Shown here: positions 36,673-60,967 of the stretch, in pieces
Layout of the letters: each line of letters begins with the position of its first letter
Position numbering within the stretch: the first letter of the stretch is position 1
Origin: Candidatus Hydrogenedentales bacterium
GTDB lineage: Bacteria > Hydrogenedentota > Hydrogenedentia > Hydrogenedentales > GCA-2746185
Assembly: GCA_038916785.1 (NCBI GenBank)
Contig: JBCLBO010000001.1
Coordinates: 1,676-65,675, forward strand
Length of the DNA: 64,000 nucleotides
Direction of reading: 5' to 3'
Translations under genes and position numbers: made by a program
Notes under the pieces: generated by a model
Told to the model about the DNA's origin: nothing
Database searches by the model: none
Seen by the model: the letters and a program-made list of their open reading frames with translations, nothing else

Positions 36673-36726
36673 AGGAATCTGGCGTTCGTTCAAAACGTTG
36701 GTGCTCGGTGAAAATGGATAGATAGA

Positions 36727-36752
36727 AAATGGTGGCTGTCCCTATTAAATCC
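36727..36752. repeat. Family E half-element (AAATGGTGGCTGTCCCTATTAAATCC)
   Basis: Matches the right arm and flank of the 34863-34890 element. It sits 15 bp from the truncated 3' end of the integrase fragment. Confidence 0.7.
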
Positions 36753-36767
36753 ATGGAGGGATTGAGT

Positions 36768-36974
36768 TCACGCAGAGATGCGGACGGTTGGGTCGAGGCT
36801 CATCGCGTCCGTGGCGTGGCGCTCGTAGTTACGCTGGGTTCGGGCGTTGGGGATGTTGGCGAGCCACTCGACGGCCGCCGACACATAGGAGAGACGCCGG
36901 AACTGCTCCGCGGTCAACAGAGTTCCCGACGAACGGGTTAGAGAGGTGGAGGGGGTTTTGGTGTGTTCCTTCAT
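36768..36974 (-). pseudogene. Truncated tyrosine recombinase/integrase (N-terminal ~68 codons only)
   Basis: LLTAEQFRRLSYVSAAVEWLANIPNARTQRNYERHATD resembles the conserved N-terminus (..EWFANI.N..TRRAY..D) of a site-specific integrase family as I remember it. No catalytic domain follows, because only about 95 bp remain before the neighbouring core gene. Confidence 0.5.
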
Positions 36975-37142
36975 AGAGTCAGTTACCTCTGATAAAATAC
37001 ATCATCAAGGGTAATTGGGCGGGGATCATTGCGTCTGGAAACGTCGTAAGTGGACGGGAAAGCCTGAGAGGCTAAACGCTGCAATTTGTGCATGAAGCAG
37101 AATCTGCATGTAGGCTATCATCAGTTCGGAGGAATTTTGGAT

Positions 37143-39176
37143 ATGGGCAAGGTCGCAGCACACTCACCGGCAGACTTAGACGCTCGGATCAAGCGCATTT
37201 ACGATCACCTTTATGCGAACGCATCGGTGCGAACTCCCGCCGGGATTGCCGCAGAAGTCGGGAAACTTATTCGTACTGCGGCGTTCATGGAAGGCGGGGC
37301 GGGGGTTTTCCCAGCTTTTACCATGGCACCGGATGTTCGGAGCGGGCTCTTGAAGGGAGAGGCGGCAGTAACGCGAAGATTTGCGTCGGACCTGCGAAAC
37401 CGTTTCGCAGAAATGAAGGCGGAATGGAAGCTCTACAACGACGCGCCGCTGCTGTTGTCTGATGCCGATATAGCTTGGTGCTGCGCTCAGCTCGAGGGGG
37501 TCACCGTGTCTGCCGGTAATCGGGATGTCTTTGGCGATGCCGTTGAGATATTCCGAACGAGTTGGGCGAAGCAGAGTTCGGGCCAATTCTTTACGGACTC
37601 GCGCGTCACGCATCTGGCGATGATCCTACTCCAGTTTGACCCTTTTGCCGGGGACGATCTTGTCGACATTTGTTGCGGAACCGGTGGCTTTCTTCTGGCG
37701 GGTGTGGACTACATTTCTCAACTTGCGGAGAAGCGTTTTCCGACGGAGAAACGCGAACAGTCAGTTGCCGATATCGCCCTTAGGCTCCTTCGCGGACAGG
37801 AGATTGATCCTGAAATCTGTGAGATTGCGAACGCGTCGCTCGCGTGTCGTTTGGGTCATCCCACTGCGCGATTGGTCCAGCGCGGCGATTCTTTACTGCC
37901 TTCATCTTTCACTATGGCTTCGGAAAATGTTCTTATCGAGGGGACGCATCGCTGTGCAGCTTCAAATCCACCCTTTGGAACGAAGATCACAGTCAAGAGT
38001 CACGAGATACTTAGAAACTACGATCTGGCTAAACAAGGGAGTGCGCACGTACGGCCACGCGCGCCGGATATATTGCTTCTGGAGCGGAACATTCGAATGC
38101 TAAAACCCGGCGAAGGCCGACTGGCGATAGTCTTACCGTATCAGATTTTATCTGGCCCGCAGACGCGCTACATTCGGGAGTGGCTTCTTCAGCGCACGCA
38201 TATCGAGGCAGTGGTCGACCTTCCGGCCGAAACTTTTCAGCCTCACACGGGAACTAAAACGTCGCTTCTAGTGGTTCGGCGGCGGGCAAAGCCTATACAG
38301 AATCCAATCGTCAGTGAGTCCGGATCAATGTTGTTTATGTCGACTCCAAAGTGGATTGGGCATGATCGGCGAGGGCATCCGACGTACCGTCGCGACCCTG
38401 ACGGACGGCCGACCGCGGCCGTACTTTCAGATATTGAAGATGTCGGTAGGGCGTTTGAGGCGTTTACCGCTGGCAGCAACCCGACCAGCATCCACAGCGA
38501 TAGTTTCACGATCAAATTAGCTCAGGTCAGCGCAGATCCAGACTTACGTCTCAATGCTCGTTACTATCGTGAAAGGAAGGCCAGCACGCGCAACGGAAGG
38601 GCTCGGGGCAAATGGAAGACTCTACGGCTGGGCGACGCGTGCGAGCGCATATTTTTCCCTGGGCGGTTCAAGCGCAATTATGTCGAACCCAGCGATTCCG
38701 CGGTGCCATTTCTAGGCGGATCCAACATTTCAGAGTTATTCGCTCAAACGAATAAGTGGATTAGTAAGGATGATCCGCGTCTACCGGATTATATAGTTCG
38801 TGAAGGCTGGTTGCTTGTGACTAGAAGTGGGACAACCGGGATCGTATCGTCTGTGCCTCCAGCGTGGGATGGGGTGGCAATGTCTGAACACGTGATTCGA
38901 ATCGTCCCTCGGTTAAATGTTATTTCGCCAGCATGGATCCAAGCCTACTTACGGTCAACGGTCGGACAACGCGCGCTTTCGCGCGGTGTTTTTGGTTCAG
39001 TTATAGACGAGATCACTCCCGCATTCATCGCTGATCTCGAGGTGCCTGTTCCAAATGACAAGGACTTGTTCGCCCGTATTGTAAATGCGGTGGAACAGGC
39101 TGAAGAAAGTCGTCAAGCCTCCATAAAGAATTTACGCACCGCGATTTCCGAGATTGAAAGCCTGTTGGGCCACTAG
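37143..39176 (+). CDS. N6-adenine DNA methyltransferase fused to a type-I-S-like target recognition domain (M-S fusion)
   Basis: Motif I DLVDICCGTGGFLLAG and motif IV AASNPPFGTK. The C-terminal ~240 aa resemble one HsdS TRD plus a conserved helix (WKTLRLGDACERIF...GWLLVTRSGTTGIV...LFARIVNAVEQAEESRQASIKNL). ATG at 37143 has GGAGG 10 nt upstream. Alternative starts are at 37086 and 37092. Confidence 0.85.
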   Translation: MGKVAAHSPADLDARIKRIYDHLYANASVRTPAGIAAEVGKLIRTAAFMEGGAGVFPAFTMAPDVRSGLLKGEAAVTRRFASDLRNRFAEMKAEWKLYNDAPLLLSDADIAWCCAQLEGVTVSAGNRDVFGDAVEIFRTSWAKQSSGQFFTDSRVTHLAMILLQFDPFAGDDLVDICCGTGGFLLAGVDYISQLAEKRFPTEKREQSVADIALRLLRGQEIDPEICEIANASLACRLGHPTARLVQRGDSLLPSSFTMASENVLIEGTHRCAASNPPFGTKITVKSHEILRNYDLAKQGSAHVRPRAPDILLLERNIRMLKPGEGRLAIVLPYQILSGPQTRYIREWLLQRTHIEAVVDLPAETFQPHTGTKTSLLVVRRRAKPIQNPIVSESGSMLFMSTPKWIGHDRRGHPTYRRDPDGRPTAAVLSDIEDVGRAFEAFTAGSNPTSIHSDSFTIKLAQVSADPDLRLNARYYRERKASTRNGRARGKWKTLRLGDACERIFFPGRFKRNYVEPSDSAVPFLGGSNISELFAQTNKWISKDDPRLPDYIVREGWLLVTRSGTTGIVSSVPPAWDGVAMSEHVIRIVPRLNVISPAWIQAYLRSTVGQRALSRGVFGSVIDEITPAFIADLEVPVPNDKDLFARIVNAVEQAEESRQASIKNLRTAISEIESLLGH

Positions 39177-39196
39177 GACCCTCTATGCCAATTCAT

Positions 39197-39904
39197 TTAC
39201 AAACGACCGTGGCGCGATAGAATGCCTCGGATAAGCTGGAGAAGCTCATCGATCGTGTTATTGCCCTGAAGGTCGTTACTCAATTTTAGTATGAGTGATG
39301 TGTTTTCAGGGACGTGTCGGCCTTTCCGGTCGAGTGGCACCATGTGGCCCGACGTGATGATCCTTGGGTTCTCGATTACTTGCTTCAAGGAGACCTCTAT
39401 TCGCTGAATCGGATCTCTAAATGTTCCCGGTTTGATCTCGTGCCCTACAAGCCATATCAGATGTTTGGATACATGGTCGGGAGTAGTCGGGGCGTCGGTC
39501 ATCGATAAGGTCTGAAATATGTACTTGATGGCCACTAATGTTCCATCAATTCTGTTCGCATAAAACTTATGTTCTTTAGGTAATTCCCAGCGGTTAATCC
39601 GATTTCCGTCTTTGCCATCTTGCGGCCGGCCCGGGACTCTACTCGATGTCGGTTTCCACGGCGCAGATCTCGGTCCAGCATCGTTGAACTTTGTCAGGAG
39701 AGCCTTAACCGAATCCTCGCTGAAACCATCGCGACGTATGAGCGCCCTGAACAGAAATTTCGCTGCCGCGTAGAGAGTTATAACGTCGTTTTCCGAGATT
39801 TTTCGTTGCGCCGCAGAGCATCTAATTACATCCGCGGATCGGGCTGCGATCTCAGCGCCGAAGTCTTCGCTTTGGCTTCCTTCTGTCTTGGTGCGTCGCG
39901 GCAA
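39197..39904 (-). CDS. Candidate restriction endonuclease (hypothetical; possible beta-beta-alpha-Me/HNH-like C-terminus)
   Basis: 235-aa lower-GC ORF lying immediately (1 nt) downstream of the controller HTH gene and convergent with the methylase. The C-terminal SGHMVPLDRKGRHVPENTSLILKLSNDLQGN is loosely HNH-like. The function is inferred from context only. Confidence 0.4.
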   Translation of the reverse strand: MPRRTKTEGSQSEDFGAEIAARSADVIRCSAAQRKISENDVITLYAAAKFLFRALIRRDGFSEDSVKALLTKFNDAGPRSAPWKPTSSRVPGRPQDGKDGNRINRWELPKEHKFYANRIDGTLVAIKYIFQTLSMTDAPTTPDHVSKHLIWLVGHEIKPGTFRDPIQRIEVSLKQVIENPRIITSGHMVPLDRKGRHVPENTSLILKLSNDLQGNNTIDELLQLIRGILSRHGRL

Positions 39905-39905
39905 T

Positions 39906-40148
39906 TTAGTTTGAATCCTTTGACGCCTTCAACAGTTCGCTTACATCGACCCGCAACGCGCTCGCTAAACTGGTCAGTGTACTGAGTGTGACATTGACCA
40001 TGCCTGCCTCAATTTTTTGCACGTGACGTGTGTGGAGATCGCTTAATTCCGCAAGTTGCTCTTGGGTAATTCGCGCGTGAAACCGAAGCCGCCGAAGATT
40101 TGCGGCAACACGCTGACGGATGTAGCTGACGGAGTTCCTACTTCCCAC
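39906..40148 (-). CDS. XRE-family HTH protein, probable R-M controller (C) protein
   Basis: 80 aa. The sequence ITQEQLAELSDLHTRHVQKIEAGMVNVTLSTLTSLASAL is a canonical HTH_3 motif. GTG start at 40148. Located directly upstream of the candidate nuclease. Confidence 0.8.
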   Translation of the reverse strand: MGSRNSVSYIRQRVAANLRRLRFHARITQEQLAELSDLHTRHVQKIEAGMVNVTLSTLTSLASALRVDVSELLKASKDSN

Positions 40149-40183
40149 GCGCTAATTAGAACCTAACGGAGAGACGCACAACC

Positions 40184-40199
40184 ACGCCATATATGGCGT
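40184..40199. promoter_or_regulatory. Perfect 16-bp palindrome ACGCCATATATGGCGT, candidate C-box/operator
   Basis: Lies 36-51 nt upstream of the controller gene start on the transcribed side. It is AT-centred within GC-rich DNA. Confidence 0.35.
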
Positions 40200-40275
40200 A
40201 ACGTTTGGACATTCGCCTACCGCGCCTGCGACTGCCACGCCGAGCGACTGAGATTCGCCCGACGCGCCGTCCGCG

Positions 40276-40785: not shown

Positions 40786-40935
40786 CTCTGGTCTCGCACC
40801 CAGAAAAAGTGGAAGCGGCGTCCCGCCGCTTCGTCCCTACCTCGCGCCCAGTCTCCCGAGTGCAACAACTCATCACACTATATAGGGACACACGCGAAGA
40901 CAGGAATCAGAGGATACCGGCTCTACCCAAAACAA

Positions 40936-40963
40936 GGTAGGGCGGGTCATGACCCGCCCCACC
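40936..40963. repeat. REP family C copy (GGTAGGGCGGGTCATGACCCGCCCCACC)
   Basis: Matches the core of 7058-7100. Confidence 0.75.
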
Positions 40964-41034: not shown

Positions 41035-42984
41035 CTAATGGTTATACGCCATCACGCCCGGCTCGACCTTGCCCAGCATTCCCGGCGGGAAGTCGCGCTC
41101 GATCCAAAATTCCTTCTTCGCCTGGCAATTGATCACGCAAGGCTTGCGGTCGTTCACGGCCACCTGCCAGCAGCGTTCGAGCGCCGGCGTGAACTGTTCC
41201 GGCGCGGTGACGTATTCGCCATAACCGCCCAGCGCCTCGGCCACCTTGTCGTAGCGCAGGTTTTCCTGAAACAGGTGCATGTGCCCAGCGCGCGGCATCC
41301 GCGAATAGCCCGCCCAAGTGCCCCACGCGTTGTTGTTGTACACAATCACGATGGCAGGGATTTTGTACTTCGCCATCGTCTCGATCTCGAACGCGGAATA
41401 TCCAAAGCCCGCGTCGCCCGTGATCCCGATCACCGGCCCGCCCTGATACGCCTTCTGCGCGCCCACGCCGAGGTCCGTCGCCACGCCCACGCCCAGCGTA
41501 TAGCCGACATCCGGCCCAATCGATCCGTACTGGTACGCGCCGTTGCAGATTTGCCCCGGCCGGAATGCGCGCAGGCGCCGCCGCGTGTAGCGGCCAATCC
41601 CGAATCCGCCCGACGCCACCGTCGTCTGGTCCGGCGGCAGCTTGCCCTTGTACAAAAAGTTCGCAAGCTCGGTTGCGATCACCGCCGGATGCACCGCGTC
41701 GGTGTAGCCCTTACCCAGAGCATAGTGCTCGTCATTCTCCTTCTCGAAGGCGTCGCGCGCCGCGGCCACCTCGGCCACCCACGCATCGTGCTTCATCGCC
41801 GGGCACTTGTCCGCCAGCGCCTCGAGCGCGGCCTTCTCGCAACTGATAATGCCCACGTCGATCGGAATGTTTCGCCCGATGTCCCGGCCCTCCGGCTCGA
41901 TGCGGACGTACTTACAATTGATGTCGAAGGGATACTCGCCGAGCCCCGGCATACAATACTGCCCGACGAAAATCGCAAGATCGACGCTGAACATCGCCGT
42001 GGGCGCCGTGCTCGCCGAGAGCGGGTGCGCGTCCGAGAAATGCCCGCGCATCGGGCCCGAATCCGCCACGGGAATCTGCGCCTTCTCGGCAAAGGTCTTC
42101 AACGCGTCCCAGGCCTTGCTGTAAAACACGCCCGTGCTCGCGATGATCAGCGGGCGCTGCGCCTGCTTGATCAAGTCCAGCACGCGATCGATATCCTTCG
42201 GGTCCGGGTGCGGCCGCGAGTCTGTCCGATACTTGTCGCGGCCCCAATACGCGTCGAGGTCGGTCGCGCTCTCGATCGCGGATTCGCGGCCCGTCGCCTC
42301 ACTCACAAAGTCGAGGTGCACCGGCCCCGGCACACCCGTCTTCAACTGCCGAAACGCGTATCCCGCGTACTCATGCACGCGCTCCTTCGTCACGATGCGC
42401 TTGCCGTATTTCTTGATGCCCTCCGTCAGCGGCTGCTGGTAGCCGCGCTGGATGCCGCGCTCCGTGTCATCGCCGCGCAGCGTCATGTTGCTCGCCAGCA
42501 CCAGCAGCGGCGTGCGGCACGCATTCGCCGCCGCGATCGCGCAAATCATGTTCGTGAAGCCGGGGCCCTCCGTCCCCGAGGTCGCCGCCACCTCCCCCGT
42601 CACCCGGATGAACGCATCCGCCGCCGAGCACATCGGCCCCTCGCCGCGCCCGCCGTAACTCGGAATGCCCGCGTTCGCCAGCGCGCTCACAATCTCGTAA
42701 TTGCCGGGGCAGCAGAACAGCGCCGAGAGGCCCTCCTCCTTGCACACCTGCGCGAAGATGTCGCCGCCCGTCGCCGGGAACGCGAACGCTTTCACGGGAG
42801 CCGCGGTGATCTCCTCGAAGGTCTTCGGCCGCGCGATCGCGCGCCCCGGAGCGTCCGGAGTGGCGGCCTTGGCCGCGCCGCCTGCAAAGGCCGCTGCGCC
42901 CGCGCCCAGCGCGGCAGTCTTCATAAAGTCGCGCCGGCTTTCGTTCGGCACCTTGGGTGGTCTCCCGCTGCGTCGTTCGCTCAT
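41035..42984 (-). CDS. Thiamine-pyrophosphate-dependent enzyme (acetolactate-synthase/pyruvate-oxidase-like fold) with twin-arginine signal peptide
   Basis: The N-terminus [25 protein letters not shown] is a canonical Tat motif (S-R-R-x-F-x-K) followed by an h-region. TPP N-domain [33 protein letters not shown]-binding motif [11 protein letters not shown]...[10 protein letters not shown]. Confidence 0.85.
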
Positions 42985-43029
42985 CGCCCGTGTCCTCCGA
43001 AACGCCCATGCGTTCTATCGCCGCCACGC

Positions 43030-43773
43030 CTACTTCTTCTTCTCAAAGCTCCGTAAATAATTCACCACATGCCAAGTCTTCTCATCGTCAAGCTGATCCT
43101 TGAACGGCTTCATATCGTACTCCGTGCCGTTCTTGATAATCAGGAACAAATTACCGTCCTTGTTCCCATACTTCCACTCGCCATCCGTCAGGTCGCTCGG
43201 GTGCGTGCTGAGAAACTCCCGCATCTCCGTATCGCCCTTCCCGTTCGCGCCATGGCACACCACGCAAGCCCGCACATAATACTGCTTGCCCAGCGCGACG
43301 GATTCCGGCGAATAGGGAATCGGGTTGGAGGGAGCCTCCTCCGCGGCCGCCGCCGTTGCACCGTCAGCCGCCGCGCCCGTCGAGAACGTGCGAATGTAAT
43401 TCACGATATGCCAGATACGGTCGTCCGGAACCTTGTCCGAAAAAGGCTGCATCCCGTTCTGACCGCCGTCCTTGATTACACTAAAAATCTCGCCGTCACT
43501 CGCGCCGTACTTCCACTCAGCGTCCATGAACGAAGCCGGCGGCACATCCAAATTCTCCGTCATGTCCGTCTTGCCCGAACCGTCCGCCGCATGGCACGTG
43601 ATGCAGTAGCGGCCATAAGCCATTTGCCCCTGCTTGATCGACTGCTCATTCGCTTCAACCGGATTCCTCAGCTCTTCAGAGGCCGCATGGGTCCCCGGCT
43701 GCCGCGGTTCAGCCCCAGCCAAGCCCGCCACAATGCAACAAGCCGTCACTATATATAAGGAGAAATACTGCAT
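43030..43773 (-). CDS. Diheme c-type cytochrome (secreted)
   Basis: Two CxxCH sites (CITCHAADGSG and CVVCHGANGKG), each with a downstream Met-containing class-I pattern (GMQPF and MKPF). The signal or lipoprotein-like N-terminus is MQYFSLYIVTACCIVAGLAGA. ATG at 43773. The longer ORF-track N-terminus was rejected. Confidence 0.8.
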   Translation of the reverse strand: MQYFSLYIVTACCIVAGLAGAEPRQPGTHAASEELRNPVEANEQSIKQGQMAYGRYCITCHAADGSGKTDMTENLDVPPASFMDAEWKYGASDGEIFSVIKDGGQNGMQPFSDKVPDDRIWHIVNYIRTFSTGAAADGATAAAAEEAPSNPIPYSPESVALGKQYYVRACVVCHGANGKGDTEMREFLSTHPSDLTDGEWKYGNKDGNLFLIIKNGTEYDMKPFKDQLDDEKTWHVVNYLRSFEKKK

Positions 43774-44134
43774 GGAGCCCAAACAACCTCCCAACAATCC
43801 ACCCAAAAACTCGACGCGACACGATAGCCCGGCATTCAATGTAGTATCAAGACCTTCCCCTGGGAGGATTAAACAGCCTGTTGCGGTACCTGTAGGCGTC
43901 AACTCCTCGACGCCAATTCCACCTTCCTTGTCATTCTGAGTTCCCCACCGGCCTTTGACCGGAGTCTGTGGAGAGAAAAACACGTCCTTCGGTGGCGTCG
44001 GCCTCCGGCCGATGAAGAATGAGCCGAAATCTCCGTTTCCCGCCGAGTATCGGTCCTCATACCTCAAAGCCAGGCCGCCCCCCACGGGCTGGAAGCCCGC
44101 GCCACCAAAACCCTCCGAACCGTTGCGCGGCAAC

Positions 44135-45007
44135 TTATTCATGTTTGTCAACACCCAGAATACTCTCGTAACCCCGCGCGGCATTGCGATACAACATTGT
44201 GTACCCACTCGTCCGCAACCGCGCATTCGAACATCTTCGGTTATGCGCCGCCCGTCCTCGCATCTGTGGTTCGTCCGAGAATGGGGGAGGAGCCACCCCT
44301 ATCCGCTCGGCAATCCATTCCACCAACGCATTGTACTCCTGCGGTTCGTCGTCCACCCCAACATACACGCGCGCGGGCTGCGCCAGTCTCATCACGTGCA
44401 TCAGCGCGCCAACAATGTCGTCGCGATGAATCAGATTCATGTACCGGGTTCTGTTGCGTTCCCGCCGCCCCTCGCCGCGCCGCACGCGATCGATCAACCC
44501 CGACCGCCCCGGACCATAAATCCCGCCCAACCGCAGCGCGACCGTCTCAAACGGACCCGCCGCGAGGATCGCTTCCGCCTCCAACAACCGCTTCCCGCTG
44601 AACGAGTCCGGCTCCGCCGGCGAATCCTCGTCCACCCAACTCCCATCCGTCTGCGCATACACCGCCGTCGACGACGTGAAAATCACACGCCGAGGCGGCG
44701 CGGAGAGCTCGCCAATCGCGGCCAACAAATTCCGGAGCCCATCCACATACGCCGCGCGATACGCCTCGTCCGTATGCGCCGAGGATCCCGCCGTGTAGAA
44801 CACCGTATCGAAGGGCCCCGGAAGATCGCGCAACGTCTCCGCGCGCGAGAGATCCGCCCTCACCCCGCGAATCGACGGCGGCAGCGACGCAACGTCCCGC
44901 CGCAATCCGTAGACCCTACAACCTTCAGCCGCAAGCCGCTCGCCCAGCGCAGTCCCGACATACCCGCAACCAACGATGAGAATGCGTGAATCCCGACCTA
45001 AATTCAT
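44135..45007 (-). CDS. NAD-dependent epimerase/dehydratase (SDR) family protein
   Basis: RILIVGCGYVGTALGERL is a Rossmann motif, and the layout is that of an extended SDR. ATG at 45007. The ORF-track extension covers a REP. Confidence 0.85.
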   Translation of the reverse strand: MNLGRDSRILIVGCGYVGTALGERLAAEGCRVYGLRRDVASLPPSIRGVRADLSRAETLRDLPGPFDTVFYTAGSSAHTDEAYRAAYVDGLRNLLAAIGELSAPPRRVIFTSSTAVYAQTDGSWVDEDSPAEPDSFSGKRLLEAEAILAAGPFETVALRLGGIYGPGRSGLIDRVRRGEGRRERNRTRYMNLIHRDDIVGALMHVMRLAQPARVYVGVDDEPQEYNALVEWIAERIGVAPPPFSDEPQMRGRAAHNRRCSNARLRTSGYTMLYRNAARGYESILGVDKHE

Positions 45008-45152
45008 CGAGTAAAACCCCCGAGCAAGGCGCCCAACCTCCGTAGCATGGGCGGCCCGCCCATGCGGATCCACGGAGACCGCCCAGGGTTGTGCCAAACG
45101 CTCTGCATCGCCCAACGCAAAAGAGCGACCCGCCAATACTCACCTTCTGCCA

Positions 45153-45803
45153 TCAGTTCGCGGGCGGAGGAACGCGGTTCGGCTCAGCCTGGTTCTCCGC
45201 GCTCGGCGCCGAAGGGTCCGGCGCGAAATGGCGTTCCGGGATTCCTTGCGGCGGCTCGCTCGTCTCCACGGGCGGCGCAGACGGATTTCGATTCTTCATC
45301 TCATCCAGCGGACGATACTCGCGCGACCCGCGATCGCGCTCGGGTCCTCCCGGTCGCGGCGGCCCACCCGAACGGTACTTAAACGCACGCTCGCGCGCCC
45401 GCTTCCAAGTCTCTTCCCATTTCTTTTGCTGGTCGGGAGTCAGCACGCGCGCCACTTGGTCGTGAAAATCGCGGAAAAAAGCGTGCGCCTGCGCGCGATG
45501 CTGCCCGCGCACCTCATCGAGTTCTTCCCGCGCGTCCTTGAAAATCTTGCCCAGCTCCGACTTCTGGTCCTTCGTCAGCTTGAGGTCCTTCTCCATGCGC
45601 GAGAGGATGCGATTGGAAAACATGTCCGGCCGGCGGCGCATCTCGTCCGCATACCGGCGGATGCCCACCACCGTCAGCCCGCTCCCGATCACCATGCCCG
45701 ACACCAGCACCACGGTGCCGAGCGCGACCGTCTTCATCCACGAGCGGCGCGGCATCTGCAGCGGGCCTTGGGCGGCCGGCGATGGGAGGGGAGTGTCAGC
45801 CAT
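45153..45803 (-). CDS. Periplasmic Spy/CpxP-like (LTXXQ-motif) protein with membrane anchor
   Basis: TM or signal segment WMKTVALGTVVLVSGMVIGSGL. Two LTxxQ motifs (LTKDQKSEL and LTPDQQKKW). Last gene of the ECF sigma operon. Confidence 0.6.
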   Translation of the reverse strand: MADTPLPSPAAQGPLQMPRRSWMKTVALGTVVLVSGMVIGSGLTVVGIRRYADEMRRRPDMFSNRILSRMEKDLKLTKDQKSELGKIFKDAREELDEVRGQHRAQAHAFFRDFHDQVARVLTPDQQKKWEETWKRARERAFKYRSGGPPRPGGPERDRGSREYRPLDEMKNRNPSAPPVETSEPPQGIPERHFAPDPSAPSAENQAEPNRVPPPAN

Positions 45804-45806
45804 GCG

Positions 45807-46082
45807 TCAGATGACGGAAGCGTCCGCTTCCGCCAGGAACTCCGTCAACGGATCGAGCGCGCCACTCACATACGGCATGGAAATCATCGCAACCACCACC
45901 GCCGCCGCCAGCGCCCCGGCCGCGAGCCAATACATCGGACGCTCAGACGCGCTCTCGCCCTGCGGCGCGCGCAACCGGCGCAGCACCGCCGCCGTCACAT
46001 CCACACGCGGCGCCGCCTCCATGCGCGCGCGGGCCGCGATCGCCGCGATCCGCCCGTCGAACCCGCCCTCATCCTCGCTCAT
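45807..46082 (-). CDS. Putative anti-sigma factor (single-pass membrane)
   Basis: Overlaps the 3' end of the sigma gene. Has a C-terminal TM helix (YWLAAGALAAAVVVAMISM). The call rests on position. Confidence 0.55.
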   Translation of the reverse strand: MSEDEGGFDGRIAAIAARARMEAAPRVDVTAAVLRRLRAPQGESASERPMYWLAAGALAAAVVVAMISMPYVSGALDPLTEFLAEADASVI

Positions 46083-46662
46083 ATCCCGCCTCCTCCAGCA
46101 GCGCACGCAATCGCTTGCGCGCGCGAAACGCCCTCACCTTCGCCAGCGTCCGGGTCCAACCCATCCGCTCCGCGATCCCCTTCATGTCCAACTCTTCAAA
46201 ATAATGCAACGTCAGCACCAGCCGATCCTCCGGCGGCAACTGCGCCAATATCCGGTGAAACCACGCCGCGGCCTCCGCCGGCGCCGGATCCGCCGGCAGC
46301 GCGACATCAATCCGCGGCTCCCGCGCCAGCGCTTCTTCCTTGCGCCGATCGCGCGCCTTCAATTTCCAGTGCCGATACCCGACCCGCGTCGCGATCCGCC
46401 GAAGCCAATGCAACAACGGCGACTGCCCGCGAAACTTCGCCAAGCCGAGATAGCACTCGACGAAGGCCTCCTGCACCAACTCCTCGACCACCACCGCGTC
46501 GCGCGAAAAGCGCCACATCTGCGCCGCGATCAAACCCTGATACCGCGCCACGATGCGCGCATACGCGTGCTCATCGCCGCGCAAACTCGCCTCGACATCG
46601 CGGCGATCCTCACCGCTGACCGGGCCCGTCACCGCCTCGGCCTCCAAGGCTCGCGTCCGCAT
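46069..46662 (-). CDS. ECF-type RNA polymerase sigma-70 factor
   Basis: Region 2 (YARIVARYQGLIAAQMWRFSRDAVVVEELVQEAFVECY) and region 4 (LPPEDRLVLTLHYFEELDMKGIAERMGWTRTLAKVRAFRARKRL). Confidence 0.9.
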   Translation of the reverse strand: MRTRALEAEAVTGPVSGEDRRDVEASLRGDEHAYARIVARYQGLIAAQMWRFSRDAVVVEELVQEAFVECYLGLAKFRGQSPLLHWLRRIATRVGYRHWKLKARDRRKEEALAREPRIDVALPADPAPAEAAAWFHRILAQLPPEDRLVLTLHYFEELDMKGIAERMGWTRTLAKVRAFRARKRLRALLEEAGYERG

Positions 46663-47689: not shown

Positions 47690-47722
47690 AAAGTGATACA
47701 AAAGTGATACAAAAGTGATACA
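47690..47722. promoter_or_regulatory. Three perfect tandem 11-bp repeats AAAGTGATACA (candidate operator/iterons)
   Basis: Units lie at 47690-47700, 47701-47711 and 47712-47722, about 120 nt upstream of the SD-supported start of the Panacea gene. Confidence 0.4.
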
Positions 47723-47842
47723 ATGTACTACAGACGAAGTCTACCGGCATTTAGACCGGAGACGATGGAGACGTGGGCCATGACCAGCTTAACACGGTCG
47801 CAGGGGGCGGCTGGGGTCTTGGGTGAACCGGAGGCAGGGGTA

Positions 47843-48565
47843 ATGTCTACGCATGGACGAGGTGTGTCTGATTCAGGGGCTTGTTTTGATCGCCTTCGTA
47901 ATTTAATATTGTATGTGGCTCGCCAGAGCGAGGGGGACGAGCGGTTTGGTAGTACGAAGCTAAACAAAGAATTGTTCTACGTTGATTTTACTTCGTACAT
48001 CCGAACGGGGAAATCTGTAACGGGGGCTGAATATCGGCGTATCGAGCGCGGGCCTGCACCAACAGCCATGAAGCCTGTTCTTGATGCAATGGTGAGAGAG
48101 CAAGAGCTTGCTCTTGAATCGCGCGGATATTTTGGCTTTGGTCAGAAAGTACCTAGGGCGTTACGCGAGCCCGACACCTCTCTTTTTGCCGCGGATGAAT
48201 TGGCGCTTGTCCATGAGATTTTGGATCGGTTCCATCTCTTCAATGGCAAGCAGATTAGTAAACAGGCGTATCAGGATTTTGGTTTAAGTGACTACAGCGA
48301 GGGTGAAACGCTTCCGTATGAAATCGCCCTCGTTAGCAATGACGGATTTACTGAAAGAGAGATAAGACAGGCCCAAGCATTCGAGGATGAGTTGGTTGCT
48401 AATGATCGCGCTGGACGACCAAAATCGGCGTTGGGAGATCATAGAGTCGCACTTTTTTCGCGAATGTGTGCACAAGCATTGCGGCATCCACGACGAACGT
48501 ACCGATCAATACTTTCTGGACGGCGTGAAAAACAGGCTCGCGCACAATCCCTACATAGGGTTTAA
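47843..48565 (+). CDS. Panacea (DUF4065, SocA-like) domain antitoxin candidate
   Basis: FDRLRNLILYVARQSEGDERFGSTKLNKELFYVDFTSYIRTGKSVTGAEYRRIERGPAP matches my memory of the DUF4065 core. ATG at 47843 has GGAGG 9 nt upstream; the ORF track starts at 47723. The last ~59 codons are Arg-rich and overlap the next ORF. Confidence 0.7.
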   Translation: MSTHGRGVSDSGACFDRLRNLILYVARQSEGDERFGSTKLNKELFYVDFTSYIRTGKSVTGAEYRRIERGPAPTAMKPVLDAMVREQELALESRGYFGFGQKVPRALREPDTSLFAADELALVHEILDRFHLFNGKQISKQAYQDFGLSDYSEGETLPYEIALVSNDGFTEREIRQAQAFEDELVANDRAGRPKSALGDHRVALFSRMCAQALRHPRRTYRSILSGRREKQARAQSLHRV

Positions 48566-48722
48566 GTATCCACACTGGAAAACACGACTACTACGAACCA
48601 ATAGGGAGTCCGCCGGATGGCTCATGCCAATGGTCGTTCAGTATCAAATCGTGGACGACAAAAAGCGCATCGTGGAATTGATGAACTTGTTCCCGGCGAG
48701 CAAGAGCATGGGAATGCCTTAG
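48402..48722 (+). CDS. Candidate toxin partner (RelE/ParE-like pattern, unverified)
   Basis: WEIIESHFFRECV...RLAHNPYIGFKYPHWKTRLLRTN...VVQYQIVDDKKRIVELMNLF has a strand/helix pattern and a C-terminal vvYxIvDdxxxIxIlxi-type ending reminiscent of RelE/ParE toxins. The start is ATG at 48387 or 48402. Confidence 0.4.
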   Translation: MIALDDQNRRWEIIESHFFRECVHKHCGIHDERTDQYFLDGVKNRLAHNPYIGFKYPHWKTRLLRTNRESAGWLMPMVVQYQIVDDKKRIVELMNLFPASKSMGMP

Positions 48723-48865
48723 AGCGTTTCAAAAGCCTAGCTTCAAGGCTTATTACCGTCCCTAAGCGCGAGATTGACGAACAGGTGCGCAAGAAGAAGC
48801 GCCCGAAGAAAGCCTGACTACTTCTTCTTTCGCTTCGGCCCTCGCCCTGTAGACCGATCCACTAT

Positions 48866-49819
48866 TCAGATCGTCTGCGCTTCGCCCGTAAGTTTCTTGT
48901 AGGTCAGGCGCTTTCCAACTACGCCGCGAAGCGTGCCCTTGAACCGCTCGGAATCCGAGAGATCGCGATTGTTGTAGCGGTAGCTCTGTTCATCCAGGTA
49001 GCGAAACAGATGGAACGGCTCAACGCTGATATACGTACCTTTCAATCCGCGCTTGAGCAAGCTCCAAAAGTTTTCCATCGTGTTCGTGTGAATCTTTCCG
49101 TTGACGTAGGCTTTCGCATGGTCGATGGTCTTGTGAATGTATTCATCCCGCAGCGATTCATAGCTCGGTAGCGCATCCGTGTAGATCGTTGATCCGGCCT
49201 CGACATATTTGCGAACGCGCGGGTCAAGGTTCTTGCGTTGGATATTTTGGATTACTTCGGTGCGGACTTCTCCGGCGCGCTCGACAACGCCCATGACAAC
49301 AATCTTGCCAAATGAGCCGGTGTTCTTGCTCTTGCCCTTCTTGAACTTCGCAGCACGGCGCTTGGGGGACATGAACCGGGCCTTGCCGCCAATCAAGGTT
49401 TCGTCTACTTCCACTTCGCCGGAGAGTTTCGTAAACGTGCCGGTCTGCATCGCAAGGCGAATCCGATGGAGCATGAACCATGCTGACTTCTGAGTGATAC
49501 CCAAGTCCCGCGCCATTTCGTAAGAGCTAACCCCGTTACGGCAGTTGGAAATCATCCAGAATGCGACCATCCACTTATCAAGGCCGACGTGCGAATCCTC
49601 GAAGATCGTACCGTGGCGGACTGTAAACTGCTTCCGGCAGACCTTGCACTGGAACTTGGAGCGGGACTTGATGAACCCGATCTCGGTGGAGCCACAGTCA
49701 ACGCAGACCGGGCCATCGGGCCAGCGAAGGTCTACGATGTAATCATGGGTCACTTCGGGGTTTGAAAAGAACAGGATTGCGTCCCTAAGTGTCTTTGGCT
49801 CCGTGCCTTGCGTGTCCAT
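48866..49819 (-). CDS. IS1595-family transposase (zinc-ribbon + DDE)
   Basis: N-terminal zinc ribbon CVDCGSTEIGFIKSRSKFQCKVCRKQFTVRHGTIFEDS, HTH-like GVSSYEMARDLGITQKSAWFMLHRIR, and DDE region EVDETLIGG...YTDALPSYESL...ENFWSLLKRGLKGTY. Confidence 0.9.
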   Translation of the reverse strand: MDTQGTEPKTLRDAILFFSNPEVTHDYIVDLRWPDGPVCVDCGSTEIGFIKSRSKFQCKVCRKQFTVRHGTIFEDSHVGLDKWMVAFWMISNCRNGVSSYEMARDLGITQKSAWFMLHRIRLAMQTGTFTKLSGEVEVDETLIGGKARFMSPKRRAAKFKKGKSKNTGSFGKIVVMGVVERAGEVRTEVIQNIQRKNLDPRVRKYVEAGSTIYTDALPSYESLRDEYIHKTIDHAKAYVNGKIHTNTMENFWSLLKRGLKGTYISVEPFHLFRYLDEQSYRYNNRDLSDSERFKGTLRGVVGKRLTYKKLTGEAQTI

Positions 49820-50164
49820 TTGGCTAGCTCCTAGTCTTGAACTAGCCCCATTCTATCAGATAATTTATGATGTGTCAAGTATATTATCGCCCTTGTTCCG
49901 CGCCGCGCCAGTTCGGAGTTCCGCGTTCACGCGGCCGCTCTTCGCCGGAATGCCGCCTAAAGGCCGAACTCCGAACGCCGCGCGGCGGCTTCCCGCCGCC
50001 GACCCCTTGTTCCGCACCCGCCAAATACCCTGATTCCCCGACTTCGTCCACTGTGTCCACTGCGTCCACTTCGCCAAAAGCAGTGCAACAATCCGAACGT
50101 ATAGATAAGGACACTGAGGGAAACTGGAGGGAATTACCGCCGCAGGCACGCCACGATGAGAAAT

Positions 50165-55640: not shown

Positions 55641-58600
55641 ATGAAGCCGAAAATTTCATGGGCGAGAATCGGAATCGTCGCGGCCGCCGCCGGCGCAGCC
55701 GCGCTCGCGGCCAGCCTCGCCACGCTCGAGCGCGCAGACGCGCACACTCGCATCACCACCGGCGTCACGTGGAGCGAGTACATCCGCCCCATCTTCATCC
55801 AGAAGTGCATGCCCTGCCACCATCCCGGAGGACTCGCGCCGGACTACGTCAACCTGACCACCTACGGCACCGACACCGTGCCTGGCGCGCGCGCATGGGC
55901 CGCGCAGATCGAAGACGAGATCATGCTCGGCCGCATGCCCCCGTGGAACGCGGACGAGCGCTTCGGAAATTTCTCCAACTCGCGCAGCCTGACCAAGGAC
56001 GAAAAAGACCTCGTCATATCCTGGATTCGAGGCGGCGGCCCACAGGGACCCTTGCGCAATCTGCCGCCGCCCGAAGAATTCGCCCGTCCCGAATGGACCT
56101 TCGGCCAACCGGACGTCGTCGTCGGGCTCCCGCAGGGCCACGTCGTCCCCGCGGACCAGCGATTCGATGCCGCCGAGGCCACCCTCGCCGTGCCGATCGA
56201 GCAGGACACCTTCATCACCGGTTACGAATTCCTCGCCGGCGATCCACAAAATGTCTCGCGCGTCACCGCCTGGCTCCACGACCCCGATGGCTTCGATCCG
56301 CAGCCCATCGAGATGGAAGTCACCTCCGGGTACGACCCCTACGCGCCCGTTACCGAGCGCGAGAAGACCCACCTGCGCCCGATGCCCCGCGGACCGCACT
56401 TCCTGGGCCAGTGGGTCAAAGGCGACGGCCCGGTGCTCTTTCCGGAGACCGCAGGCCGAAAGCTTTACGCCGGCTCGAGTATCCAGCTCCGCGTCGAATT
56501 CGTCCGCCCCGACGGGGCCGATTGGACCAAGGAAATCCGCGATAACACCCGCCTCGGGCTCTTCCTAGGCGCGCCGAACGAAGAATTCGATCTGCTCGTC
56601 GAATCCAGACTTATCGAGTCCAATCCGTTTACCGTGCTTGCAGGCGCGAAGGAACAGCACCGGATCGAATACACCCTGGAGGAAAACGTACATCTGCTCG
56701 GAATCGAGCCCCACCTCGGCCCCGTCGCCACTCAGATGAAAATCGAACTCTTCTATCCCGACGGCATGGCGCGCACAATCGTCTGGGTCTCGCATTACCA
56801 ACAGCGATGGGCCACCAGTTATCACTTCGCCGCGCCCGTCGCCGCCCCCAAGGGCACGCGCGTCGTCATTTCGGGGACCTTCGACAACACGAAGGACAAC
56901 GCCAACAATCCGAACGATCCCCCGGTGGACGTGAAGACCGGCCCCGGCTACCTCGATGAGCGTCTATACGCCTATTTGCACTACCAGCTCGACGACCACC
57001 TCAAATTGCAGCCGGTCGCCGTCACCAAAGTAGCGCCGGAGGGCGGCGGCATGCTCGGCGGACTCGGCGGAGACATTCTCACGGCCGCAGGCGCCGGCCG
57101 CAGCGTCCAGGAGACCACCGCACAGGTGGCCGAATCGCTCGAATCCTCCACCGCGCCCGAGCGCGTCCGCATCGCGTCGAATGGTTACCACCAGGTGCAA
57201 GGGATGATGCGCCGGCCGGGGGCCTTCTCCTTGTACGTATACGACGACCGCATGGAGCCGATCGATCCGCGAAACTTCGCGGGCGAGTTGCTGCTCGACG
57301 GCGGCGCGCGCACCGTGCCCCTCGCGCGCTACACGCCGGGCGACGATTTCCTCTCCGCCTGGTTGGACCCGAGTTTTCCGCAGTCCTTCGTAGCCAAACT
57401 TCAGATGGGTGGCGTCGAGGAAACGTTCGACTTCGCTTTCGCGGCCCCCTCGCCTGAAGTGACCGGCGCCGATCCTGGGACCAAAGCCGCATTCATCCAG
57501 CCGCCCCACGGCGGATGGCTCGAGAGCATCGAGGGCACGAGCTACCAGGTCGAAGCGGCCCTTCCGGACAACGGCGATCTACGGTTCTATTTTTACGGCC
57601 CCGGCATGAAACCTGTCGACCCGCGAAATTTCCGCGGCGAGATCGAGATTGTGCCGGACGCGCAACAATCCTCGATTAAATCCGTCATTCGCCTCGCTCA
57701 ACCCTCGCCGCGCGCGGAATATCTAGCGGCCAAGGTCTCGCCCGAACTTCCGCTGAAAGTCCGCGCATCGTTCGCCGTGGGCAATGGGCGCCGCGACTTT
57801 GAATTCGCGTTCGATGAGAAATCCGAAGCGCCCTGGGACGCCGCCGCGGACGCGTCCCCCGCGCAGCCGGTCATTCTCGGGCCGCACGGCAGTCCCGAAC
57901 TCTATCCCTCGGCCAACGGCTTCCATTTCATCGAGGCCGCGCTCCCGCGCCCCGGCGAATTGAGGCTTTACTTCTACGACGCGTGGAAAAATCCTGTGGA
58001 TCCTGGACTCTTCACCGGCGAAATCGAATTGAACGGCGTCAAGCAGCCGCTCGTGCGTCCAGTCCCGGGCGACGAATTCCTCGCCGCCTTCCACCCGCCG
58101 CAGACGCCGCTCGAGGTCAACGCGAGCCTGTGGATTGGCGGCAAGGAAGAAAAATTCAGGTTTCGGTTTAGCGACGTCACCCTCGATCCCGCCCAGCAGC
58201 GAGACATGGCGATCGCGCATATGAATCACACGCCACTCCACGGCGGGCAGTTCTTCATGGCGGACAACCTGTTCCACCACGTCGAAGGCACCCTGCCCGC
58301 CCCCGGCGAATTCCGGATGTACTTCTATGACGATTTCAGACGCCCCATCGACCCGAGAAATTTCTCCGGCTCCGCGCGCATCGAGCACCTCGACGAAAAC
58401 TCCGGTGACGTGACGGAGGAAATTTTCCCCCTCGAACTGCTCCGCCCCGGCGACGGATTTCTCACGGCCAAGATTCCCGCGTCCATGCCGGCCACCTTGT
58501 ACGCGTCCGCAACGCTCGGTGATGTCGACAAACGCTTCGACTTCCAATTCAACCAGGTGACCGTCGACACCGGCGGGCCCAAGCAGATGCCCGGTATGTC

Positions 58601-59713: not shown

Positions 59714-60967
59714 ATGCATCAAGCACCGAGACTAGCCGCGCTGTGGGTCGCGTTGGCGGGCGCATCCTTCGCGGGCGCGGCGAGCGCGGAAATCACGTTC
59801 AACAAAGACGTGCTTCCGATCCTGCAACAAAACTGCCAGACCTGCCACCGCCCCTCGGGGACCAATCTCTCCGGCATGGTGGCCCCGATGTCGCTCATGA
59901 CCTACGAGGAAGTCCGCCCGTGGGCAAAGGCGATGGTCAAGGCCGTAAATGAGAAAGTAATGCCGCCCTGGGACGCGGCCGAACACTTCAACGGCGTCTT
60001 CAGTAACGAGCGCACGCTCACCGCGGGCGAAATCGCCATCCTGAACGACTGGATCAACCAAGGCGCCAAGCGCGGCAATCCGCAGGACGCCCCCGCGCCG
60101 ATTCACTTCGCCGACACCGGCTGGAACTTCGGCAACCCCGACCTCGTCGTGGACTTCCCGGAACCCTTCTTTGTGAAGGATGAGGTCCAGGATCTCTACG
60201 AGAACATCACCACGAAGCTCACCGCGGCGCAGCTTCCGGCCGATCGCTGGATCCGCAGCGTCGAATTCAAACCGGGTAGCGATGTCGTGCATCATATTAT
60301 CGGCCACGCCTCCACCGGCGGCGCCGCAGGCGATACGAGCCGCGGCATGATCGGCGGCAATGCGCCGGGCGCGGACCAGGCGCAGTGGGACGATGGCTTT
60401 GGAATGTTGCTAAAGAAGGACTCCGCCATCACCTTCGCCCTGCACTACCACAAGGAAGCTGGCCCGGGCACCGGCAAATGGGACAGCTCGCAGATCGGCC
60501 TCCAGTTCCACCCGGAGGGATCGAAGGTGACGCACCCGGTCACGACCTACCCGATCGGGCACGGCGGCTTCGAAATTCCGCCGAACCACGCGCACTGGAA
60601 AGTCGGTGCGTCGCACACCTTCGATGAAGACACACTCTTGCTCAATATGCTGCCGCACATGCACCTGCGCGGCGCGGCGGCCAAGTACACCGCGTACTAT
60701 CCCGACGGCGCTACGGAACTCCTTCTCGACGTGCCGCAGTGGGACTTCAATTGGCAGACGGGCTACAACTACAAGGTCCATAAGAACTTGCCCGCGGGTA
60801 CGCGCATCGAGATGGAGTTCTGGTTCAATAACTCGGCGGAGCGCGGCGAGGCGGCCGGTTTCAATTCGAACGAGGCAATCCGCTTCGGCGGCCCGACCAC
60901 GGACGAAATGGACCTCGCATGGATCACCGTGGCCCCGAAGAAAGAACAAGAGATTCCCGGCGACTAA
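59714..60967 (+). CDS. Secreted heme-c domain fused to PHM/DBH-like (copper type II ascorbate-dependent monooxygenase fold) domain with full Cu-ligand set
   Basis: Signal peptide. Heme site CQTCH. The candidate CuH set is VVHHIIGH plus ALHYH. The candidate CuM set is PHMHLRG plus GGPTTDEMDLAWI, which compares with the GGTSSDEMC motif I recall from PHM. GGGAG lies 7 nt upstream of the ATG. Confidence 0.8.
   Translation: MHQAPRLAALWVALAGASFAGAASAEITFNKDVLPILQQNCQTCHRPSGTNLSGMVAPMSLMTYEEVRPWAKAMVKAVNEKVMPPWDAAEHFNGVFSNERTLTAGEIAILNDWINQGAKRGNPQDAPAPIHFADTGWNFGNPDLVVDFPEPFFVKDEVQDLYENITTKLTAAQLPADRWIRSVEFKPGSDVVHHIIGHASTGGAAGDTSRGMIGGNAPGADQAQWDDGFGMLLKKDSAITFALHYHKEAGPGTGKWDSSQIGLQFHPEGSKVTHPVTTYPIGHGGFEIPPNHAHWKVGASHTFDEDTLLLNMLPHMHLRGAAAKYTAYYPDGATELLLDVPQWDFNWQTGYNYKVHKNLPAGTRIEMEFWFNNSAERGEAAGFNSNEAIRFGGPTTDEMDLAWITVAPKKEQEIPGD

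Follow-up and report, generated by a model that had tools for sequence, protein, structure and literature searches.

Organization of the gene module

The 64,000-nucleotide stretch of DNA analyzed here as a whole (the window; contig JBCLBO010000001.1 of assembly GCA_038916785.1, positions 1,676 to 65,675 of the forward strand) comes from a Candidatus Hydrogenedentales bacterium, and its minus strand carries, between 40.2 and 43.8 kb, three consecutive open reading frames (ORFs) encoding a c-type cytochrome, a thiamine diphosphate (ThDP) enzyme with a predicted twin-arginine translocation (Tat) leader, and a small basic protein, here termed C2. The cytochrome (43030..43773, minus strand) is a diheme class I protein of 247 aa with the motifs CITCH and CVVCH, recognized by its Pfam matches and predicted from its signal to be secreted. 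The ThDP enzyme gene (41035..42984, minus strand) follows after an intergenic gap of 45 bp and encodes 649 aa arranged as PYR, middle, and PP domains with a tail ending in EPGVMAYNH. Residues 1 to 40 (42865..42984, minus strand) are a predicted twin-arginine signal peptide, in which SRRDFMK (42919..42939, minus strand) is followed by an Ala/Gly-rich h-region and a predicted AKA-A cleavage site. Glu115 of the PYR domain (42640..42642, minus strand), the putative cofactor-activating glutamate, is invariant in the family and aligns with the RDEG glutamate of 2-hydroxyacyl-CoA lyase (HACL), and the Mg-ThDP binding motif GDAG-X23-NNN spans residues 523 to 552 (41329..41418, minus strand). C2 (40276..40785, minus strand) has 166 to 169 aa, with ATG 40776 as the likely start. 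An earlier note on this DNA had described a two-gene pair; all of the sequence features that it named, including the motifs and the 45-bp gap, are present, and the pairing of cytochrome and ThDP enzyme stands, but its two-gene extent does not, since the linked third gene, C2, had been overlooked.

A Shine-Dalgarno sequence (GGAGGA) precedes the ATG at 42984 by 8 nt, which makes a translation start upstream of the RR motif credible; the concern that the true start might lie downstream of this motif is thus not borne out. The ThDP and C2 genes are separated by a spacer of ~250 nt that contains two terminator-like, GC-rich hairpins (40936..40963 and 40812..40832, within 40812..40963, minus strand), each followed by T-runs. 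The spacer is lineage specific, being shared with the near-identical locus L081 and absent from locus L001, and it might perhaps lower the expression of C2 relative to that of the ThDP enzyme. A promoter-like site, TTGATA-18-TATCGT (43821..43850, minus strand), is found ~50 nt upstream of the cytochrome start and hints at a candidate operon start, with 2 such sites found against 1.3 expected in shuffled sequences, a difference that is not significant alone. An Rfam scan of the region from 39.5 to 45.5 kb matched no family, including the TPP riboswitch.

The twin-arginine leader

The N terminus of the ThDP enzyme matched the NCBIfam model TIGR01409 (TAT_signal_seq) with 22.9 bits, above the cutoff of 16.7, and passed a TATFIND-like rule, as did 119 of 120 homologs. 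The motif S-R-R-x-F-[ILM] was kept in 119 of the 120 best homologs (61 to 88% identity), the sole exception being truncated at its N terminus. Within the leader, the two arginines and the phenylalanine at +3 are invariant, the serine at -1 and the segment AAxGAGA (+7 to +13) are strongly conserved, and the n-region and the linker after the cleavage site carry nearly no conservation information.

The boundary of the family was searched among 1.84 billion cluster representatives. Full-length members scored at least 557 bits (46 to 61% identity), and the next full-length proteins scored at most 205 bits (30 to 34% identity). The nearest relatives outside the family align from residue ~72 only, begin at the TPP_N domain, and have no leader. 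This sharp boundary, together with the leaderless state of the outside relatives, indicates that the leader is a defining trait of the family. Three cluster representatives are full length. Two of them, P0158 and P0159, have the RR motif; the recorded N terminus of P0162, the most divergent at 46% identity, shows no RR and is apparently truncated. In locus L082 and in a 149-kb JGI contig, which represent a divergent branch, the gene immediately preceding the ThDP gene encodes a TatA/B/E paralog (PF02416, 28.5 bits), and a dedicated TatA beside a single substrate gene is unusual. The textbook twin-arginine leader read earlier from the window alone is therefore well supported by sequence comparison as a genuine, family-wide Tat signal, and the ThDP enzyme is predicted to be exported by the Tat system. 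In the branch formed by L082 (L082:135-800) and the JGI contig, genes for a TonB-dependent receptor, a pyrroloquinoline quinone (PQQ) dehydrogenase, a 101-aa cytochrome of the 'Dehyd-heme_bind' type, and the TatA/B/E paralog precede the ThDP gene.

Family placement of the ThDP enzyme

The 649-aa enzyme matched the Pfam models TPP_enzyme_N (PF02776, 68.8 bits), TPP_enzyme_M (PF00205, 73.2 bits), and TPP_enzyme_C (PF02775, 70.2 bits), all above cutoff. Among 50 aligned members, residues E115, G523, D524, G526, N550, N551, and N552 are invariant, and this invariance of the catalytic glutamate and the Mg-ThDP motif indicates that the enzyme should be active. The C-terminal tail, EPGxMxYNH, is also conserved, and its last residue is invariant in the same alignment.

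Family placement was based on profile scores, the ranking of matches in the PDB, and the bit score gap in the representative search. No NCBIfam equivalog was reached, the best score being 198 bits against a cutoff of 587. The models missed include those of oxalyl-CoA decarboxylase and HACL (TIGR03254, 136.5 bits against 739.4; NF006721, 155 against 557; NF058623, 139.9 against 600), acetolactate synthase (TIGR00118, 148.8 against 538.35, with other models of this enzyme also far below cutoff), pyruvate oxidase (NF006377, 111.5 against 742), sulfoacetaldehyde acetyltransferase (Xsc; TIGR03457, 142.2 against 676.4), and glyoxylate carboligase (NF008431, 125 against 791). The best sequence matches in the PDB were HACL, oxalyl-CoA decarboxylase, BbmA, and benzaldehyde lyase/formolase, with E values from 8e-40 (7pt3) to 1e-33, and weaker matches were obtained with acetolactate synthase (E ~1e-20) and pyruvate oxidase (E ~1e-14). 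A Foldseek search with the AF2 model retrieved oxalyl-CoA decarboxylase 2q28 (E = 3e-35; TM score of 0.80 normalized to the target). The middle domain alone scored 56 bits with Escherichia coli oxalyl-CoA decarboxylase, 34 with glyoxylate carboligase, and 26 with pyruvate oxidase. The acetolactate synthase/pyruvate oxidase fold named in the earlier note is thus correct at the superfamily level, and the nearest relatives are instead oxalyl-CoA decarboxylase, HACL, and benzaldehyde lyase. As in that group, to which formolase and the BbmA HKA synthase also belong, the enzyme has the three-domain fold, the catalytic glutamate, and a GDG...NN-type motif. However, it shares only 21 to 26% identity with the oxalyl-CoA decarboxylase/HACL group, from which the Tat leader, the linker, and the conserved C-terminal tail also distinguish it.

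Several features set the enzyme apart from its relatives. In an alignment to 2q27, STG and GQY stand where oxalyl-CoA decarboxylase has GKG and GAR, the Lys and Arg of which we take to be ADP ligands. In addition, an invariant Asn95-Tyr96 replaces the Gly-His ('GGH') of HACL and of four of the six nearest cytoplasmic relatives inspected. Given the predicted periplasmic location, CoA thioester substrates, which are used by oxalyl-CoA decarboxylase and HACL, are not expected. Flavin adenine dinucleotide (FAD)-binding residues, which had been suggested as a point to look for in the middle domain, were not found: no RFDDR-type flavin motif was seen in the enzyme, and the middle domain matched pyruvate oxidase with just the 26 bits given above. 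Since the nearest relatives are flavin-free lyases and decarboxylases, a pyruvate oxidase-like FAD relay is unlikely. No iron-sulfur (Fe-S) motif is present in the enzyme either.

An exact look-up of the ThDP protein sequence matched no record. With the gap between 557 and 205 bits at its boundary, the enzyme does not nest in a known cytoplasmic family and appears to form a discrete, uncharacterized family that is unclaimed by any curated family. Full-text literature searches yielded no report of a ThDP enzyme that is periplasmic or exported by Tat, nor of the trio of cytochrome, ThDP enzyme, and C2, in agreement with the earlier statement that no characterized example could be named.

The cytochrome and its linkage to the ThDP gene

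The cytochrome consists of two class I domains, with matches to Cytochrome_CBB3 (PF13442, 84.8 bits) and Cytochrom_C (PF00034, 73.2 bits), and has a hydrophobic signal at its N terminus. Weak, subthreshold matches were found to the MoxG, PedF, and SorB models. The C-terminal heme domain of this diheme protein is the one shared with the monoheme partners in other phyla, and a search with the 103-aa cytochrome domain returned just four fragments.

In a scan of one genome per species, 80 homologous loci were found, mostly in Blastocatellia and other Acidobacteriota. The other loci belong to Hydrogenedentota, Pseudomonadales/Porticoccaceae, Opitutales/Limisphaerales, Planctomycetia, Gemmatimonadetes, and Vicinamibacterales and to metagenome-assembled genomes (MAGs) labeled Nitrospirales or Rhodothermaeota; Devosia naphthalenivorans CM5-1 is the one strain in culture. 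The records closest to the window module are MAGs labeled Rhodothermaeota, Nitrospirales, and Hydrogenedentota. Linkage was counted in the 46 loci whose flanks reach at least 1.5 kb upstream and at least 3.5 kb downstream. A homologous class I cytochrome c is encoded on the same strand in 44 of these 46 loci, and a heme protein is present in 45, including that of Devosia.

Two gene orders were observed. The cytochrome gene lies directly upstream of the ThDP gene in 15 loci, which form the clade of the window (the gap is 21 to 233 bp in 14 of them and 805 bp in one), and it follows C2 in 51 loci. Behind C2, loci of the Devosia/L082 branch instead encode an unrelated heme protein without a Pfam match, the two representatives of which share 60% identity; in Devosia itself, C2 is followed by a 119-aa, signal-bearing CxxCH protein. 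A linkage that outlasts both rearrangement and nonorthologous replacement speaks for a c-type heme partner being functionally required. Furthermore, 11 of the 12 full-flank loci that have neither a PQQ dehydrogenase nor a copper monooxygenase gene within 6 kb still keep the cytochrome, which indicates that the trio is a self-contained core. The cytochrome-ThDP linkage proposed from a single genome thus recurs across several phyla and in both gene orders, the orthologs keep the Tat signal as well as the cytochrome neighbor, and a partnership of the two proteins is well supported by this gene neighborhood; the two would presumably also be physical partners.

The arrangement resembles those of SorAB sulfite dehydrogenase, of PQQ methanol dehydrogenase with cytochrome cL, and of the three-subunit flavoprotein-cytochrome c dehydrogenases of acetic acid bacteria, in which an exported catalytic subunit is accompanied by a dedicated cytochrome c gene. 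In periplasmic dehydrogenase pairs, the cofactor-loaded subunit is exported by Tat and the cytochrome by Sec, and the small third subunit of the three-subunit enzymes is involved in Tat hitchhiking. Unlike in those pairs, which use the molybdenum cofactor, PQQ, or FAD, the cofactor here is ThDP, which is not itself redox active, and C2 shows no relationship to the known small subunits or Tat chaperones.

The third gene, C2

C2 is present in 45 of the 46 full-flank loci, and in 73 of the 80 loci its gene follows the ThDP gene, mostly directly. It has an isoelectric point of about 10 and no signal peptide. Pfam and NCBIfam scans of 32 C2 members with E values up to 10 gave no match, either to the Tat proofreading chaperones (TorD, DmsD, and NapD) or to any other family. 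The 37 C2 homologs found are nameless or annotated 'hypothetical protein', and in all three homolog contexts looked up (P0121, P0154, and P0155) the ThDP gene adjoins C2, which appears to represent an orphan protein family. Invariant residues include R31, G32, F51, W53, R96, H104-R-R106, E147, Y159, and the C-terminal Glu. Acetolactate synthase has an ACT domain small subunit as its partner; such an identity was considered for C2 and rejected, since neither an ACT nor an ALS_ss_C match was found.

The AF2 model of C2 (pLDDT of 93.5) comprises a helix, a four-strand sheet, a helix, a hairpin, and a helix. Recurring weak Foldseek matches, with TM scores of 0.4 to 0.55 and none of them significant, were to type III secretion chaperones (Spa15, SchA, ExsC, and AvrPphF-ORF1), BacA/PA14_16140, and the MotA C-terminal domain. 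The type III secretion chaperones, which matched with TM scores of only 0.4 to 0.5, are typically acidic, whereas C2 is strongly basic. The likeness to the YbjN-BacA fold was judged from the fold description for BacA (PA14_16140) (PMC10948618). Candidate roles for C2 are a cytoplasmic escort or proofreading factor for the Tat substrate and a signal-less subunit that is coexported with it, and the position-specific conservation of the leader h-region is consistent with the escort or proofreading role. A DNA-binding regulator is also possible, given the basic charge and the weak likeness to the MotA C-terminal domain.

The wider set of oxidation genes

In most genomes the module sits inside a larger periplasmic oxidation island. 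Within a reach of 6 kb, 30 of the 42 loci with full flanks in the wider-context set encode a PQQ dehydrogenase and/or cytochrome-fused copper monooxygenases. Further genes within this distance code for a protein with DUF2911 or DUF1579, a VOC/glyoxalase protein, and, in some cases, an LLM oxidoreductase. The copper monooxygenases have a signal peptide and ~420 to 480 aa, with a cytochrome c domain fused to a PHM/DBH-like domain, and the motifs CxxCH, HH...H, and HxH...M are invariant in 50 homologs. They occur mostly as tandem pairs beside the ThDP module (e.g., L007:3016-5734 and L019:3978-6847). The full-text literature contained nothing on cytochrome-fused PHM-like monooxygenases; they seem to be uncharacterized and could be cytochrome-driven periplasmic hydroxylases.

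The PQQ dehydrogenases of L012 (L012:7773-9935) and L007 (L007:6439-8344) are soluble and signal bearing, and they are nearest to the membrane-bound glucose/quinate/shikimate family, with ~340 to 350 bits, below the cutoff of 833. In the L012 protein, a cytochrome c domain (residues 489 to 553) is inserted inside the propeller and is not terminal. Across the loci, 41 of 50 full-length copper monooxygenase ORFs and 29 of 42 PQQ dehydrogenase ORFs have a CxxCH of their own. In L085, the cytochrome, ThDP, and C2 genes form one contiguous stretch with genes for a DUF2911 protein, a PQQ dehydrogenase, COX1, and COX3, which points to an island equipped with a terminal oxidase of its own.

In the window, the island genes are present but dispersed. 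Two copper monooxygenase homologs are encoded on the plus strand at about 55764-56984 and at 59714-60967, 13 to 17 kb from the module, and are followed by a gene for a DUF2911 protein (61071-62132, plus strand) and by genes for cytochrome c oxidase subunits II and I (COX2/COX1; 62233-63995, minus strand), the latter truncated by the window end.

Proposed function and alternatives

Our favored reading, to which we give a probability of roughly 0.45, is that the ThDP enzyme may be a periplasmic ThDP-dependent carbonyl:cytochrome c oxidoreductase and that the three genes may constitute one module. The enzyme would fold and bind Mg-ThDP in the cytoplasm, be exported in its folded state via Tat, lose its leader at the AKA-A site, and then work in the periplasm with the Sec-exported c-type cytochrome. 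ThDP would add to a small 2-oxo acid or aldehyde, for which glyoxylate and pyruvate are guesses, and the resulting carbanion/enamine would be oxidized by heme c in two one-electron steps without a flavin or Fe-S relay, after which the acyl-ThDP would be hydrolyzed to the acid. The reduced cytochrome would feed an aa3-type cytochrome c oxidase and/or the nearby cytochrome-fused copper monooxygenases, and C2 would serve as the cytoplasmic escort or proofreading factor or as the coexported subunit. Direct electron transfer from the enzyme to the cytochrome, and its direction, are thus postulated together with the substrate and the role of C2. Glyoxylate is a speculative choice: related enzymes act on it, PHM-type chemistry releases it, and a serine-glyoxylate-aminotransferase-like gene, as read from the N-terminal sequence of the ORF, lies near the Devosia locus.

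Two known systems provide partial analogies. In pyruvate oxidase (PoxB, a pyruvate:quinone oxidoreductase once termed 'pyruvate dehydrogenase (cytochrome)'), which belongs to the same superfamily, the hydroxyethyl-ThDP intermediate is oxidized and the electrons enter the respiratory chain; PoxB resides in the cytoplasm or peripherally on the cytoplasmic side of the membrane and has an FAD relay, whereas the window enzyme is predicted to be exported, has no flavin motif, and would have a c-type cytochrome as its acceptor. Pyruvate:ferredoxin oxidoreductase (PFOR) and oxalate oxidoreductase carry out a flavin-free one-electron oxidation of ThDP intermediates via a radical. Unlike these enzymes, which differ in domain organization, contain [4Fe-4S] clusters, are cytoplasmic, and are sensitive to oxygen, the window enzyme has no Fe-S motif.

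Several points weigh against the proposed oxidoreductase. We know of no ThDP enzyme that passes electrons directly to heme; the oxidative ones known to date rely on FAD, as in pyruvate oxidase, or on Fe-S clusters, as in PFOR. Among solved structures, those nearest to the enzyme belong to nonredox lyases and decarboxylases, and the PQQ dehydrogenases and copper monooxygenases of the 30 of 42 loci could be the real partners of the cytochrome. The Pfam model TAT_signal (PF10518) scored 17.9 bits, below its cutoff of 22.7, and the AF2 model of the ThDP enzyme is only moderate (pLDDT of 75.8). For the role of C2, Foldseek against the PDB gave nothing significant (best E of 0.06).

The strongest alternative, which we consider unlikely on balance, is that the exported ThDP enzyme is a nonredox C-C lyase, decarboxylase, or carboligase in a periplasmic oxidative pathway, acting like benzaldehyde lyase or HACL on free alpha-hydroxy-ketones, 1,2-diketones, or 2-oxo acids, and that the cytochrome serves, in place of the ThDP enzyme, the other redox enzymes of this pathway (PQQ dehydrogenase, cytochrome-fused copper monooxygenases, and cytochrome oxidase). 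The lyase and decarboxylase character of the closest relatives in sequence and fold, together with the want of a precedent for a ThDP-to-heme step, favors this alternative. It also agrees with the missing sign of a flavin site, with the oxidation genes found within 6 kb in 30 of 42 loci, with the contiguous set in L085, and with the copper monooxygenase genes 13 to 17 kb away in the window. However, in 11 of the 12 minimal loci the cytochrome gene is tied to those of the ThDP enzyme and C2, often with very short gaps, and this tight, rearrangement-proof linkage favors the oxidoreductase. Moreover, many of the copper monooxygenases and PQQ dehydrogenases have their own CxxCH and would depend less on a dedicated cytochrome encoded separately, and the heme slot has been refilled by a nonorthologous protein in the Devosia/L082 branch.

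A second alternative concerns location: the Tat leader might stay uncleaved, as it does in Rieske proteins, and anchor the enzyme to the periplasmic face of the inner membrane. The unusually conserved sequence of the h-region (AAxGAGA) would fit an anchor, as would a possible lipobox-like VTAC in the signal of the diheme cytochrome of this lineage. The canonical AKA-A site after the h-region, the short and Ala/Gly-rich character of the h-region (mean Kyte-Doolittle value of 1.28), which better suits a cleavable Tat signal, and the variable linker of ~30 residues behind it make such an anchor improbable.

It is more improbable still that the cytochrome is an electron donor for a reductive ThDP reaction or that the heme protein has a sensing or regulatory function. 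No direct point favors this alternative, for which it can be said that a sequence cannot give the direction of electron flow. Class I c-type cytochromes are high-potential carriers and ThDP carbanions/enamines are strong reductants, and the association with cytochrome c oxidase genes likewise fits the oxidative direction.

Finally, an ordinary cytoplasmic ThDP enzyme with a fortuitous RR or a miscalled start and a coincidental cytochrome neighbor would agree with the subthreshold Pfam TAT_signal score and with the cytoplasmic location of all characterized enzymes of this fold known to us, but it has hardly any likelihood in the face of the Shine-Dalgarno sequence at the upstream ATG, the TIGR01409 score above cutoff, the motif in 119 of 120 homologs, the Sec-like signal that even an internal start at Met21 would leave, the heme protein kept in 45 of 46 loci, and the TatA paralog adjacent in one branch.

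Other genes around the module

Upstream of the module and on the same (minus) strand, the window encodes an NAD-dependent epimerase (44135..45136), an LTXXQ/CpxP-like periplasmic protein with RR in its N terminus (45153..45803), a putative anti-sigma factor of 99 aa (45807..46106), and an extracytoplasmic function (ECF) sigma factor (46069..46662). These genes (44135-46662) have the same order in L081 and could provide a lineage-specific, envelope-linked regulation of the module.

On the other side, the module adjoins a low-G+C block (36700-40200; 52 to 58% against about 64%) with three ORFs, an N6_Mtase/Methylase_S fusion (37086..39176, plus strand), a 235-aa ORF without an assigned family (39197..39904, minus strand), and an HTH_3 protein (39906..40148, minus strand). 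In the near-identical, syntenic L081, C2 is followed by a 225-aa ORF, an enoyl-CoA hydratase, and a glyoxalase gene, and no methyltransferase or HTH gene was called between them, which indicates that the block looks like an inserted restriction-modification-type element. A second low-G+C patch (47700-49850; 53%) contains a SocA/Panacea antitoxin-like ORF (47723..48565, plus strand) and an IS1595-family transposase gene (48866..49819, minus strand).

Implications

The components of the module are known folds in a new place and a new combination. To our knowledge, all characterized ThDP enzymes with this fold act in the cytoplasm or in an organelle matrix, and a Tat-exported ThDP enzyme, if confirmed, would add ThDP to the cofactors that cross the membrane inside folded proteins. 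Put at its fullest, the proposal is of a new class of ThDP enzymes that are exported by Tat with their cofactor, have their carbanion/enamine oxidized directly by heme, are assisted by C2, and allow carbonyl compounds to be respired without import; we advance this more tentatively than the oxidoreductase reading itself. By record labels, such a class would extend over at least seven phyla, Acidobacteriota (Blastocatellia and Vicinamibacterales), Hydrogenedentota, Pseudomonadota, Verrucomicrobiota, Planctomycetota, and Gemmatimonadota among them.

The module is compact, with three genes, keeps at least 60% identity across phyla, and has at least one cultured carrier, D. naphthalenivorans CM5-1. 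Roughly 2,000 proteins currently labeled 'acetolactate synthase-like' or 'thiamine pyrophosphate-binding protein' would be reannotated, together with an orphan family. Direct ThDP-to-heme oxidation, if true, would represent a new EC 1.2.2-type activity with a previously unknown accessory family, C2. If the cytochrome is indeed the acceptor, it would constitute a third route, beside FAD and Fe-S clusters, for electrons from ThDP intermediates and, for lineages abundant in soil and in the sea, a new point at which carbon-derived electrons enter aerobic respiration.

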